Below, one piece after another: positions 19,470 to 24,530 of a stretch of 64,000 nucleotides of DNA. This DNA comes from Chlamydiia bacterium (GTDB lineage Bacteria; Chlamydiota; Chlamydiia; Chlamydiales; GCA-2402025). The first letter of the stretch is position 1. Each line of letters begins with the position of its first letter. The DNA lies in assembly GCA_030427725.1 (NCBI GenBank), contig JAUICV010000002.1, forward strand, positions 136,436 to 200,435, written 5' to 3'. Under the pieces are notes generated by a model that was given only the letters and a program-made list of their open reading frames with translations, made no database searches and was not told the origin of the DNA. Both the position numbers and the translations under genes were made by a program.

Positions 19470-20600
19470 ATGCTTTTTTTCTTAAGAATTATTTTATTGT
19501 TTTCATTTTCTTCATACATATACTCATGCCTCCCCAGCCTAGAGCCCGATGCAAAGGGCCGCACAGGAGACCGAGTACTTAGTTTATTTAACTGTTATTA
19601 TTTTTCTTACACATTTAATTCGGGAGTAATCTTACCAAAAAATTATTTTGCAAAATCTCTCTCCAATTCTTTAAAACTCCCCATAAAAGCGGCGCCACCC
19701 ACCCTAAACCAAATAGATACTGAAAATAAATACAGAAACCATCTCTTTGATCAAGCAATGCAAGAATTCAAAGATTGCATTCAGTTCATATCTGCTCCCA
19801 TGTTAAAAAGAGTTAATAGAAAAAAACAAATCAATCTGAAAAACTTTTTCAAAAACTCAATAGATAAATATGCAAACTTTTTATCTGAATTTTTTAACGC
19901 TCTGGACTGTCCTTGCTCAAAAAAAACAGTTATGAAATTGCCCAATATAGCTTCTATTCTGATATCTACACCAACATCCTACGAAAACAAATTTGTTTTG
20001 AAGCCTGATTGGCAAGACCCCAATTTTAAAAAATATATTCACGAAAAACTAAAATTATTCCTATCCTCTACAAAAGAAACTGACCTGCCTGAAAACTCTT
20101 TTAATATTGCGATTCATTTTAGACATGGTGGAGCTTTTGATCCTCCCTCAGTAAAGCAACAGCATTCTTTGAGATTTCTTCCCAAGAGTTTTTATACAAG
20201 CACTCTTCCCAAAATCCTCAAATTCATACCTAAACAAGTACCTGTATTTATTGGAATTTTTACCGATTGCAATGATCCATCACTAACGGCCTCATTTATT
20301 CAATCGATCACTAACGTCTCTGATAACCGTGCAAAAATAGAACTTCTTGCAGATGAAAATGATTTATTTCATGACATGGTGATAATGTCGAAATTTGATT
20401 TTATCATTCGACCTATCTCCTCTTTTTCTATTGCCTCTGAACATCTTGGTGATTTTGTAGGAGTTTGCACTGTTCAAGTACAAGGGAAAAATACTGTGAC
20501 TTTACCATCAGGACTAAAGGCATTAATTCATTTTGATCATGAGAAATTTCAAAAACGCATAAATGACTTGCTTTTGATTCTAGCAGGGCTAACGCATTAA
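19470..20600 (+). CDS. Putative glycosyltransferase, fucosyltransferase-like (paralogue A); 3' end reads into ISAs1-like element
   Basis: Hydrophobic N-terminus ending YSC. Motifs GRTGDRVLSLF, NIAIHFRHGGAFD and IIRPISSFSIASEHLG resemble GT11/GT23-type motifs GGLGNQ / HxRRGD / SxFS. The last 6 codons plus stop (20584-20600) come from the inserted IS. Confidence 0.55.
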   Translation: MLFFLRIILLFSFSSYIYSCLPSLEPDAKGRTGDRVLSLFNCYYFSYTFNSGVILPKNYFAKSLSNSLKLPIKAAPPTLNQIDTENKYRNHLFDQAMQEFKDCIQFISAPMLKRVNRKKQINLKNFFKNSIDKYANFLSEFFNALDCPCSKKTVMKLPNIASILISTPTSYENKFVLKPDWQDPNFKKYIHEKLKLFLSSTKETDLPENSFNIAIHFRHGGAFDPPSVKQQHSLRFLPKSFYTSTLPKILKFIPKQVPVFIGIFTDCNDPSLTASFIQSITNVSDNRAKIELLADENDLFHDMVIMSKFDFIIRPISSFSIASEHLGDFVGVCTVQVQGKNTVTLPSGLKALIHFDHEKFQKRINDLLLILAGLTH

Positions 20601-21773
20601 AATATTAGCTAAATACTCATCAGAGTATAAAGCTCGACGCTTTCTTCTTTTAAGGCTAGTTCTAGAATCTTCTATTTGACGGATGAGGTTTAGGGCCGAA
20701 TGCCTTACTATAGCCATATTTTCTGGTCCATTCCCTTTTCTTATCCGGTTTTGATCTTCGCTAAATACAACATCTAGAACCCAGTGCAGACTGTTTTCTA
20801 TACCCCAGTGACTTCTTATTGCAAAAGCGTGATCCTTCGGCCCCTTAGTTAGACTAGAGAGATAATAACGGACCTCTGTTCTAGACTGATCCTTTATAAT
20901 CCGTGTCGATTCTATTTTTATGATACTTGAGAGTTTAGGCCATTGTTTCTCTTTTGTAAGCCAAGAGACTTCTTGGCTTACAAAACACTTTCTAATTTCG
21001 ACACGACCATGTCCTTTATCACAACTCTCATAACAACTTAGTTCTCTACTATCTTTAAAGAGTAAATCAACTTCTTCGTATAAGCTTTTTTGGTTTTTTT
21101 TAAGGGCTAAAATATAGTCTCCACCTTTTTCTGTGATCGTTTTTGCGAGAGATGTTTGACATCCCATAGCATCCATGGTGACGATAGCTCCTTTCAAAAA
21201 CAAAACCTCTAACAGCTTAGGAATAGAAGTGATTTCATTGGATTTTTTTGAGACCGCCTCTTGAGCTAAAACTAGTCTGGTATTGGACGCAAAAGCGCTT
21301 ACTAAATGAAGCGGTTTTTGGCCAGATGTTTTATCTAAGCTTCCTCTTAAAGTTTTTCCATCAATACTGATAATATTTGGTAGAGAGTCTTGTAGACTCT
21401 CTACCCACTTTAAGAAGCAATCTTTAAAATCTTTTGGATGAATAAGAGAAAAAACTCTAGCAAACGTATCATGAGAAGGCGTGCCATTTTTGAAAGGTAA
21501 GTACTGTTTTAAAAAATAAAGCTTAGCTTTGCCAAAATCCTCTATATCTTCCCAACTTTCCGATCCACAAATGATTGCACATAAAACAGTTAAAAAAATT
21601 TCATCGAGTGGATACAGCTTGTGTCTATTTATTCTAGGATCTTCGATCTCAGAAAAAAAACTTAAAAAGGATGTTGTGTGGAAGTCTTCTAAAGTGCTCA
21701 TGTTGATTTTCTCCTTACTTGAAAGGAGAAAATCATAACCTATTTAATGAATTATTTTAATGCGATAGCCCTG
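20584..21773 (-). mobile_element. ISAs1-family insertion sequence (1190 bp), apparently intact
   Basis: 20-bp IRs: cagggctaacgcattaaaat (20584-20603) versus the reverse complement of 21754-21773 (cagggctatcgcattaaaat), 19/20. Perfect 10-bp direct repeat TTGATTCTAG at 20574-20583 and 21774-21783. Confidence 0.85.
20589..21701 (-). CDS. ISAs1-family (H-repeat-associated, DDE) transposase, intact 370 aa
   Basis: FSEIEDPRINRHKLYPL...SESWEDIEDFGK...PSHDTFARVF (DDE_Tnp_1_assoc-like N-terminus). DGKTLRGS...VTMDAMGCQ...IRSHWGIENSLHWVLDVVFSEDQ. Confidence 0.9.
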   Translation of the reverse strand: MSTLEDFHTTSFLSFFSEIEDPRINRHKLYPLDEIFLTVLCAIICGSESWEDIEDFGKAKLYFLKQYLPFKNGTPSHDTFARVFSLIHPKDFKDCFLKWVESLQDSLPNIISIDGKTLRGSLDKTSGQKPLHLVSAFASNTRLVLAQEAVSKKSNEITSIPKLLEVLFLKGAIVTMDAMGCQTSLAKTITEKGGDYILALKKNQKSLYEEVDLLFKDSRELSCYESCDKGHGRVEIRKCFVSQEVSWLTKEKQWPKLSSIIKIESTRIIKDQSRTEVRYYLSSLTKGPKDHAFAIRSHWGIENSLHWVLDVVFSEDQNRIRKGNGPENMAIVRHSALNLIRQIEDSRTSLKRRKRRALYSDEYLANILMR

Positions 21774-21779
21774 TTGATT

Positions 21780-23283: not shown

Positions 23284-23432
23284 CTTTTGAAAAACTTAAT
23301 CTTGTACCTTTAGATCCCTGAGATAAACGTCTATATACGTTGAGCTATCATAAAAATTATTATTCAAATATTGCTATCTTCTGGTACAAGCGTTACTAGC
23401 CATACTCCTAATCTTATACTAGTGGAGCTTTT

Positions 23433-24530
23433 ATGCTTTTTTTCTTAAGACCTATTATTCTGTTTTCAATCTTTTCTAATCTTTACTCATGTCTTCCAAT
23501 TCTAGAACCCCAACCACTTGGTCGCACAGGAGACCGCCTTCTTCGCTTATTTAGCTGTTATTATTTTTCATATAAATTTAATGTAGGCGTATCCCTACCT
23601 AAAGATTATTTACCAGAATCTCTCTTTAATCCTTTAAAGACCTCCATAGAAGCGACGCCTCCCTTCCTTAGCCAAATAGATAAGGAAAATAACTACTGGA
23701 ACAACCTCACTGATCAAGCAATGGAAGAGTTTAAAGATCAAATTCGTCTTACCTCTTCTCTCAGCTTAAAAAAACTCCATCAAAATCAACGAATCAAACT
23801 GTGGACTCATTTTGAAAACTCGATAGATGAATATGCAAACTTTTTACCTGAATTTTTTAGCGCTCTGGACTGTCCATGCTCAAAAAAAATAGCAATGAAA
23901 TTTCCCGGTTTGGCTTCTGTGATGATATCTACACCAACATCCTATGAAAACGGATTTATTTTGAAGCCTGATTGGCAGGATTCTAATTTTAAAAAATATA
24001 TTCACGAAAAGCTAAAATCATTCCTATCATCTACAAAAGAAACTGACCTGCCTGAAAACTCTTTTAATATTGCGATTCATTTTAGACAGGGTGGAGATTT
24101 TGACCCTCCTCTAGCAAAATTGCGTCATACTGTAAAATTTCTTCCCCTGAGCTTTTACACAGACAATCTTCCCAAAATTCTTGAGTATATTCCTAAAGAA
24201 GTTCCAATATTCATTGGCATTTTTACAGATTGCAATGATCCGTCATTAACCACCGCATTTATCCAAACGATCTCTGACGTTTGTGATAACCGTGCAAAAG
24301 TCAAGCTTCTTTCAAGAGAAGAAGATCTTTTTCATGACATTGTAACGATGTCAAAATTTGATTTTATCATGCGCCCAATTTCCTCTTTTTCTATTGTTTC
24401 TGAACATCTTGGGGATTTCGCAGGGGTTTGTACTACTCAAGGACAAGAGGAGAATTCATCTTCTGGACTAGATGTATTAATTCATTTTGATCAGGATAAA
24501 TTTCAAAAACGCATAAATGACTTGCTTTAG
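23433..24530 (+). CDS. Putative glycosyltransferase, fucosyltransferase-like (paralogue B)
   Basis: About 70% aa identity by eye to paralogue A. Same motifs (GRTGDRLLRLF, NIAIHFRQGGDFD, IMRPISSFSIVSEHLG). A 58-nt stretch is identical to paralogue A (24031-24088 = 20068-20125). Confidence 0.55.
   Translation: MLFFLRPIILFSIFSNLYSCLPILEPQPLGRTGDRLLRLFSCYYFSYKFNVGVSLPKDYLPESLFNPLKTSIEATPPFLSQIDKENNYWNNLTDQAMEEFKDQIRLTSSLSLKKLHQNQRIKLWTHFENSIDEYANFLPEFFSALDCPCSKKIAMKFPGLASVMISTPTSYENGFILKPDWQDSNFKKYIHEKLKSFLSSTKETDLPENSFNIAIHFRQGGDFDPPLAKLRHTVKFLPLSFYTDNLPKILEYIPKEVPIFIGIFTDCNDPSLTTAFIQTISDVCDNRAKVKLLSREEDLFHDIVTMSKFDFIMRPISSFSIVSEHLGDFAGVCTTQGQEENSSSGLDVLIHFDQDKFQKRINDLL

Follow-up and report, generated by a model that had tools for sequence, protein, structure and literature searches.

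A family of leader-bearing proteins of the fucosyltransferase superfamily in a Chlamydiia bacterium

Background

NodZ, the alpha-1,6-fucosyltransferase of rhizobia (GT23; PDB 2hhc, 3siw and 3six), is a leaderless, cytoplasmic enzyme of about 300 amino acids (aa) with a variant of the GT-B fold that acts on Nod-factor chitooligosaccharides. The eukaryotic POFUT1 (GT65) resides in the endoplasmic reticulum and has an epidermal growth factor repeat as acceptor; it is a soluble protein with a cleavable signal peptide and works in a lumen that is fed with guanosine diphosphate (GDP)-fucose by a transporter. Members of GT11, such as H. pylori FutC, E. coli WbgL and vertebrate FUT1/2, belong to the same superfamily. 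In bacteria, their genes are often part of O-antigen clusters and direct synthesis of the H-type epitope, which is extended by a GT6 enzyme; to our knowledge, the GT11 members that have been characterised from bacteria are cytoplasmic and leaderless. Heptosyltransferases of lipopolysaccharide (LPS) biosynthesis (GT9) also have a GT-B fold but form a different family with different motifs, and likewise lack a leader. Here we describe a family of leader-bearing proteins, three of which (paralogs A, B and C) are encoded in a 64,000-nucleotide stretch of the genome of a Chlamydiia bacterium (GenBank assembly GCA_030427725.1, contig JAUICV010000002.1, positions 136,436 to 200,435), hereafter the window. 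A preliminary description had reported three full-length members there; all three open reading frames (ORFs) are indeed intact, and a fourth paralog, P0003, is found on the same contig (673,996 bp) beyond the window.

Family membership and predicted GDP-sugar site

A, B, C and P0003 represent a family within the fucosyltransferase superfamily for which Pfam-A and NCBIfam have no coverage. Membership in this superfamily, which includes NodZ and FUT8 (GT23), POFUT1 (GT65), GT11, GT37 and GT68, is well supported by the fold of the structural model, the Foldseek matches, the motif alignments and the correspondence of individual residues, and the proteins are predicted to be inverting GT-B glycosyltransferases. 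Neither Pfam-A nor NCBIfam returned a family match for A, B or C (for Pfam, none at E <= 1), NCBIfam had no match to 16 core relatives, and the Pfam GT11 model matched just one of the 80 aligned relatives. Word-indexed protein searches retrieved the query itself or a few matches only, and a profile built from three sequences had no match among PDB sequences. The extent of the family became apparent when 1.84 billion cluster representatives (50% identity) were searched exhaustively with hmmsearch: 820 relatives reached E <= 1e-3, and 262 of them E <= 1e-10. The superfamily gains with these 820 representatives a sizeable family with a confident fold assignment. Members that are named at all in their source records are called 'hypothetical protein'. 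A scan of IMG/VR gave no viral relatives, and in the literature we found no description of the family, nor of leader-bearing glycosyltransferase islands in Chlamydiota or Dependentiae.

The AlphaFold2 model of C that was used here, computed on an 80-sequence alignment, has a pLDDT of 84.2 and a pTM of 0.84; on a 3-sequence alignment the pLDDT was 34. When this model was compared to the PDB with Foldseek, the top 48 matches were exclusively NodZ, FUT8, AtFUT1 and POFUT1 (E from 2.7e-7 to 7e-4, probability 1.0 each), with nothing related after them. NodZ was the best structural match (E = 2.7e-7), and POFUT1 matched at E ~4e-6. Among viral models (BFVD), the best matches were giant-virus alpha-1,2-fucosyltransferases.

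Paralogs A, B and C share the motifs G-R-(T/L)-G-D-R, H-F-R-x-G-G-x-F-D and R-P-(I/V)-S-x-F-S. The preliminary description had recognised all three, although it misspelt the first (the true string is GRTGDR or GRLGDR), and had pointed to the GT11/GT23/GT65 superfamily. That assignment holds, as the Foldseek top 48 are all fucosyltransferases, the family profile matches NodZ and hhalign aligns the GT11 motifs. The motif-by-motif comparison with GT11 fared less well: the GRxGD loop, likened to GGLGNQ, resembles the R40-F41-G42-N43 loop of POFUT1 and FGDC of NodZ, and the second motif, taken for a degenerate HxRRGD, is a near residue-for-residue match to HVRHGNGED of NodZ.

NodZ shares with the family the FGD/GRxGD loop, HVRxGxGxD, and an acidic residue together with IRxxxSxF. 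In its alignment with the family profile, HVReGggfD is paired with HVRHGNGED, and IRpeSnFS with IRFPPTSAFT. The two are nevertheless distant, with an identity of about 16% and a TM-score of 0.45-0.50. GT11 enzymes have the same motif order; hhalign of the family against a genuine GT11 from a related locus aligned the same motifs at a probability of 45%, pairing HVRxGG.FD with VHMRSYLDFD and SNFS with SSFSWW, but the family lacks the RRGD signature in this motif. As for POFUT1, its R40-F41-G42-N43 resembles the GGRFGDN loop of the family and its H238/R240 the HxR, whereas it has Asn in place of the family Asp and gave no sequence-profile match.

Across the 80 aligned sequences, R29, G31, H164, D250 and S265 (numbering of C) are invariant, and G28, D32, R166 (conserved in at least 90%), G168, D172, R262 and S268 are nearly so. 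In CePOFUT1, the ribose, the alpha-phosphate and the fucose are contacted by R40, F41, G42 and N43, guanine by H238 and D334, and the beta-phosphate by S355/T356 and by R240, its catalytic ligand (PMC3180450). Read by motif order, we infer that the conserved residues of the family correspond one-to-one with R40/G42/N43, H238, R240, D334 and S355/T356, the single change being Asn43 to Asp32, an Asp that is also present in NodZ (FGDC). The predicted GDP-sugar site therefore appears to be intact, with the GRxGD loop for ribose and alpha-phosphate, HxR for guanine and beta-phosphate (including the catalytic Arg), an invariant Asp and the S-x-F-S loop. In P0005, which is closely related to A, B and C and encoded outside the window, HxRxGGxFD is replaced by HMVEDKNFD, which lacks the catalytic Arg; this protein may be an inactive paralog.

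N-terminal leaders

Nearly all relatives begin with a signal-peptide-like sequence, followed almost directly by beta-strand 1 ('AVTY') and GGRFGDN. The three window paralogs start with MLFFLRIILLFSFSSYIYSC, MLFFLRPIILFSIFSNLYSC and MLRKFLLMLVCAELVVAC, and their hydrophobic stretches end in YSC, YSC and VAC, as had been described for A, B and C, respectively. The oddity of a leader on a nucleotide-sugar enzyme, also remarked upon before, is genuine, since a signal-peptide-like leader is a real, family-wide trait. Among 126 single-domain relatives, the n-region is net-positive in 108 and a small-residue (-3,-1) site is present in 106, and the mean charge is +1.66 before the hydrophobic core but +0.35 over the 15 residues after it. 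The core itself has a median length of 14 residues (interquartile range 11-16) and reaches at least 18 in only 19 of these proteins. Beta-strand 1 begins 1-10 residues past the hydrophobic stretch; in C, it begins one residue past the Cys. Exported control proteins of the same genome (a Wza lipoprotein, two outer-membrane protein beta-barrels and a GH81 protein) have leaders similar to those of the family, whereas the neighbouring GT9, GT4, GT2 and ManC proteins in the same clusters have none. A type II membrane anchor like that of eukaryotic Golgi transferases, one of the options initially considered, is unlikely, as there is no stem, the core is short and the first beta-strand follows so closely.

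Five relatives of 400-446 aa encoded outside the window (P0020, P0029, P0077, P0085 and P0140) have a long N-terminal region in place of the leader. Within it, about 80 residues ahead of the catalytic domain, are one or two hydrophobic segments, which in P0020 are repeated twice. Such N-termini suggest that these proteins are arranged differently in the membrane, perhaps in the manner of chlamydial inclusion-membrane proteins.

Paralogs of the window and their history

The segment from 19470 to 24530 of the window (G+C content 36%) is a composite, not a single unit, and consists of A, two insertion sequence (IS) elements and B (Table 1). Identity is 70% between A and B and 30% between A and C, the latter pair giving a tblastn E of ~1e-26, which puts its similarity far above chance. 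The transposase gene of the second IS is broken into two ORFs, and this element is therefore probably defective. In A, the stop codon TAG has been changed to TTG, so that its last eight codons read into the intact IS.

Nucleotide homology between A and B extends from 4 nt before the ATG to just beyond the stop codon. In addition, the segment at 21771-21914 is a 91% copy of 24525-24668, that is, of the DNA downstream of B with the 3' end of the GT9 gene, which indicates that the duplication giving A took in flanking sequence. The synonymous divergence (dS) between A and B is 0.53 and the dN/dS ratio is 0.34. Judged by these comparisons, A and B go back to a segmental duplication of some age and have been retained under purifying selection; expansion of the family would reflect old duplications retained in this way. 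We also considered A as a decaying pseudogene and rejected this, because the reading frame is unbroken, none of the invariant residues has been lost and dN/dS is low.

Table 1. Coordinates of the paralogs and associated features. Positions refer to the window, except for the gmd genes, which lie in related loci of other genomes.
Feature	Position	Strand	Remarks
Transposase, HTH_38 + rve (integrase core), IS30-like by domain architecture	18408..19349	-	Upstream of A
Paralog A	19470..20600	+	376 aa, intact ORF; leader (residues 1-20) 19470-19529, ends IYSC; GRTGDR 19557-19574; HFRHGGAFD 20115-20141; RPISSFS 20409-20429
Intact ISAs1-type IS	20584..21773	-	21-nt inverted repeats; 10-bp target duplication TTGATTCTAG; just 3' of A
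Transposase of intact ISAs1-type IS	20589-21701		DDE_Tnp_1 + DDE_Tnp_1_assoc
Second ISAs1-type element	22088..23283	+	Perfect 21-nt inverted repeats; transposase ORFs 22145-22510 and 22587-23141
Paralog B (P0002)	23433..24530	+	365 aa, intact ORF; leader 23433-23492, ends LYSC; GRTGDR 23520-23537; HFRQGGDFD 24078-24104; RPISSFS 24372-24392
Divergent GT9-like glycosyltransferase	24534..25442	-	Leaderless; directly downstream of B, convergent
GT9 heptosyltransferase II, RfaF-like	25439..26479	-	TIGR02195, E = 8.7e-66; leaderless
Paralog C	46261..47208	-	315 aa, intact ORF; used for the structural model; leader 47155-47208, ends VVAC; GRLGDR 47110-47127; HFREGGDFD 46693-46719; RPVSHFS 46405-46425
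Paralog P0003			Same contig, beyond the window; 344 aa; N-terminus ...FSLLSSC
gmd, locus L051	4211-5305
gmd, locus L050	1919-3055
gmd, locus L052	4584-5735
gmd, locus L066	2941-4059
gmd, locus L072	3801-4919

Genomic neighbourhoods

GT9 genes adjoin two of the four family copies in this genome, B and P0003. The latter is part of a cluster that encodes two SDR epimerases, a split transketolase, a GT2 enzyme, a 420-aa Wzx-like multi-span membrane protein, P0003 itself, GT9 and GT4 enzymes, ManC and a 398-aa multi-span protein with a weak match to Wzy_C (E = 8.6e-4). This context points to a surface glycan, and the recurrence of GT9 adjacency within it keeps an LPS-type function alive as an alternative.

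For comparison, we used 77 related loci (L003-L079) obtained by scanning species-representative genomes with patterns from the 16-sequence core alignment; a scan with subclade patterns gave no loci, and the 80-sequence alignment was too diverse for pattern building. By their labels, about 32 of these loci belong to Chlamydiota, 10 to Dependentiae/Babeliales, 6 to 'uncultured Pseudomonadota' and 3 to Verrucomicrobiota, the rest being unclassified metagenome-assembled genomes; 13 of the 77 contain two or three family copies. No GT9 gene was found in any of them. The family's position beside GT9 genes, which had been noted earlier, is thus true of B and of P0003, where it falls inside a surface-glycan cluster, but had to be rejected as a conserved family trait: the link is lineage-specific, though recurring within this lineage.

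The most frequent neighbours in the related loci are DUF6492-like proteins (30 loci), GT2 (19) and RXYLT1/GT47-like (19) enzymes, an unassigned transferase-like protein with the string 'IVFIHIG' (16), which also occurs as an N-terminal fusion in the long family member P0053, and GT6 (7; match at E = 6.7e-52). Further neighbours include a GT32-like DXD protein, GT10, GT11, GT17, Nucleotid_trans and NodZ-like proteins, FkbM-type and other methyltransferases, SDR epimerases, UDP-glucose dehydrogenase and ankyrin-repeat proteins. The GT2, GT6, GT10, GT11, GT17, GT32-like, RXYLT1/GT47-like, Nucleotid_trans and DUF6492-like families are Golgi-resident in eukaryotes. Most island neighbours start with MKK and a hydrophobic, leader-like stretch, as judged by eye; our signal-peptide heuristic was discarded as quantitative evidence for them because it also scored 45% of unrelated ORFs as positive and was fooled by Rossmann N-termini. 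No flippase or polymerase recurs in the islands, and multi-span membrane proteins are rare there (30 of ~800 ORFs). Examples of such islands are found in L015 (852-7698), L050 (860-10645), L051 (2505-12209) and L072 (3801-11919).

About ten family members of 530-610 aa, all encoded outside the window (P0030, P0049, P0055, P0061, P0082, P0094, P0097, P0106, P0121 and P0127), have an N-terminal S-adenosylmethionine (SAM)-dependent methyltransferase-like domain (...HIVEIGxGYGG...) fused to the fucosyltransferase-like domain, and most of them bear a leader. These fusions hint at a methyl-fucose or a methylated acceptor; a possible parallel is seen in rhizobial Nod factors, in which the fucose added by NodZ is later 2-O-methylated.

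The genes for GDP-fucose biosynthesis were located by BLAST with E. coli Gmd and Fcl as queries. A gene for GDP-mannose 4,6-dehydratase (gmd) lies within about 3 kb of the family gene in 5 of the 77 loci, where by a rough estimate well under one locus would be expected by chance, and a gene for GDP-fucose synthase (fcl) is near the family gene in two loci, directly upstream of it in L072. The five gmd products are 59-68% identical to E. coli Gmd and are extended at the N-terminus by a hydrophobic segment ahead of the Rossmann beta-strand 1; at least three of the five ORFs offer no internal Met from which translation could start instead. The GT6 enzyme of Parachlamydia is active and adds GalNAc solely to H-type (Fuc-alpha-1,2-Gal) acceptors (PMC3516806). 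This requirement, together with the co-location of GT6 genes, makes the family a natural candidate for producing the fucosylated acceptor.

Proposed function

We propose that these enzymes add a GDP-activated sugar, either fucose or a related 6-deoxyhexose or mannose, to a glycan of the bacterial envelope, for example the outer core of LPS or lipooligosaccharide or an O-unit-like oligosaccharide. The gmd, fcl, ManC and GT6 context suggests a GDP-fucose-type donor, and the gene clusters of this genome suggest an envelope acceptor. Family members of other genomes probably make a Fuc-Gal (H-type) epitope, which the co-located GT6 would extend. Each protein would carry a Sec-type leader, with a positive n-region and an h-region of 10-16 residues placed almost directly before the Rossmann beta-strand 1, and, taken at face value, this would place the mature enzyme beyond the cytoplasmic membrane, free in the periplasm or held by a tether, where it would decorate the glycan after flipping. 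Such an arrangement would require a supply of GDP-sugar beyond the cytoplasm; the nearest parallel to the way in which an exported member would need to function would be POFUT1. On the strength of the N-terminal features of the family, we lean slightly towards export of the catalytic domain. If the leaders do export these proteins, they would represent nucleotide-sugar-dependent glycosylation outside the bacterial cytoplasm, with intracellular bacteria exploiting host nucleotide sugars in the periplasm or vacuole; we know of no established precedent for such glycosylation by GT-B enzymes in bacteria. The co-location with GT6 also hints at fucosylated, blood-group-like epitopes, which bears on host mimicry and on the antigenicity of environmental chlamydiae.

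Several observations speak against this proposal. TM-scores to the solved fucosyltransferases are just 0.41-0.50, the Pfam models GT11 (PF01531), NodZ (PF05830) and O-FucT have no match to A, B or C, NodZ was the sole match of the family profile among PDB sequences and scored weakly (E = 0.06), and the mapping onto POFUT1 follows motif order, not superposition. The signal-peptide heuristic is permissive, GT9 genes are absent from the 77 foreign loci, and the leader-like extensions of the gmd products are hard to square with simple periplasmic export of an NADP-dependent enzyme and could mean that such segments are membrane tethers. Moreover, we know of no nucleotide sugars in the bacterial periplasm, so that an exported GDP-sugar enzyme would have no obvious donor.

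Alternatively, the family could consist of LPS or O-antigen glycosyltransferases at the cytoplasmic face, the hydrophobic segment being an uncleaved inner-membrane tether, similar to that of WaaA/KdtA, that keeps them near the lipid-linked acceptor and GDP-sugars. We entertain this tentatively. Conservation of the GDP-sugar-binding residues is consistent with it, as are the two GT9 genes adjoining B, the Wzx-like, Wzy-like, GT2, GT4, GT9 and ManC proteins of the P0003 cluster, the adjacent gmd and fcl genes in other genomes and the N-termini of the gmd products, which are more positive after the hydrophobic segment than before it and so fit an N-out/C-in anchor. In the family, however, the charge bias is the opposite and the cores are too short for a bilayer; some relatives possess genuine lipoboxes, the segment runs into beta-strand 1 without a linker, and the other glycosyltransferases in the same clusters are untethered. 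If the leaders are only tethers, the proteins would be an ordinary but newly recognised family of LPS or O-antigen fucosyltransferases. If they are not, the biochemistry, the cluster context and the extensions of the gmd products would call for a more radical view, in which intracellular bacteria carry out nucleotide-sugar chemistry beyond their cytoplasm with substrates taken from the host. A quite unlikely possibility is that they are effectors, secreted via Sec and perhaps type II secretion or vesicles into the inclusion lumen or the host, where they would fucosylate host or inclusion-membrane glycans with host nucleotide sugars. The labels of the 77 loci, almost entirely Chlamydiota and Dependentiae, would agree with this, as would the leader-bearing appearance (by eye) of the co-located GT6, GT10, GT11, GT17, GT32-like and GT47-like proteins, whose families work in the Golgi lumen of eukaryotes, and the ankyrin-repeat proteins among the neighbours. 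Chlamydia GlgA, which acts in the inclusion lumen on imported UDP-glucose, would be a precedent, and the pseudopilin-like N-termini encoded beside C, in ORFs that have no Pfam match, offer no more than a lead. Yet the paralogs in this genome sit with LPS-type rather than effector-type genes, no secretion signal could be identified beyond Sec, and the linkage to gmd and fcl suggests that the bacterium synthesises the donor itself.

Whether the mature enzymes might instead be lipoproteins, anchored at the periplasmic face of the membrane through a conserved Cys that becomes the lipidated +1 residue after cleavage by signal peptidase II, was assessed with a core lipobox pattern and with PROSITE PS51257 ({DERK}(6)-[LIVMFWSTAG](2)-[LIVMFYSTAGCQ]-[AGS]-C; Cys at 15-35, K/R in the first seven residues). 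The Wza control passes both. C (VVAC) and P0003 (LSSC) match the four-residue core but carry a charged residue in the h-region that makes them fail PS51257, whereas A and B fail both patterns, with Tyr at -2 and Tyr or Asn at -4, so that a strict lipoprotein reading was rejected for these two. Although P0005 and P0006 match PS51257, a strict lipobox is present in only 6 of the 126 single-domain relatives, and most end in sites resembling those of signal peptidase I, without Cys; the lipobox-like site suggested in the preliminary description is accordingly weak. In addition, the N-terminal Cys always occurs with a CxC motif (C97/C99 in C), which is present in all five proteins of the subclade formed by A, B, C, P0003 and P0005 and in none of the 75 others, a co-occurrence that the shared ancestry of five closely related proteins could also explain. 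A disulfide or metal site appears at least as likely as lipidation. In C, moreover, beta-strand 1 would begin one residue after a lipidated Cys. Overall, we consider lipoproteins unlikely.

A broader extension of the export proposal, which we regard as doubtful, is that Chlamydiota and Dependentiae, both obligate intracellular associates of eukaryotic cells, operate an extracytoplasmic, Golgi-like glycosylation system of leader-bearing enzymes in the periplasm or inclusion lumen, with the three window genes as its representatives in this genome. Its toolkit would comprise this family, GT2, GT6, GT10, GT11, GT17, GT32-like and GT47-like enzymes, FkbM-type and other methyltransferases, Gmd and a sulfate-activating enzyme (see below), and its nucleotide sugars, SAM and ATP would be leaked or transported from the host or exported by the bacterium.

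Additional genes near the paralogs

Three genes from C, the window encodes a bifunctional ATP-sulfurylase/adenosine 5'-phosphosulfate (APS) kinase, that is, a 3'-phosphoadenosine 5'-phosphosulfate (PAPS) synthase (42870-44618, + strand), with PUA_2, ATP-sulfurylase and APS_kinase domains. Its start, MKYVLSIATIFLAFISPFLNAETF, is signal-peptide-like, so that a leader is seen here, too, on a nucleotide-dependent enzyme of cytoplasmic type. Three small ORFs close to C (42308-42820, 44659-45339 and 45343-46245, + strand) have hydrophobic N-termini, one of them prepilin-like (...HPLTLLEILLSL). Pfam gave no match for any of the three; by their N-termini, they may encode type II secretion pseudopilins.

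A gene for a TopA-SWIB fusion, which is typical of chlamydiae, adjoins the P0003 cluster and was the basis for assigning the organism to Chlamydiota. Also beside this cluster, at 1565-5891 of locus L080, are genes for a secreted 916-aa GH81 protein (beta-1,3-glucanase family) and two small outer-membrane beta-barrel proteins, all leader-bearing.

Elsewhere in the window, a 1479-aa fusion protein (9801-14240, - strand) combines a glycogen/starch synthase (GT5 and GT1 domains) with CBM48 and an alpha-amylase domain of the branching-enzyme type; GlgA-GlgB fusions are found in some environmental chlamydiae. A Wza-type polysaccharide-export outer-membrane lipoprotein with the textbook lipobox LLTSC is encoded at 7603-8670 (- strand). 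Beside it, within 3597-8670 on the same strand, are genes for a 987-aa protein without assignment (4676-7639) and for an SDR sugar epimerase/dehydratase (3597-4658). In its longest ORF, the SDR gene encodes a 37-residue hydrophobic N-terminal extension, and translation could also start at an internal Met.

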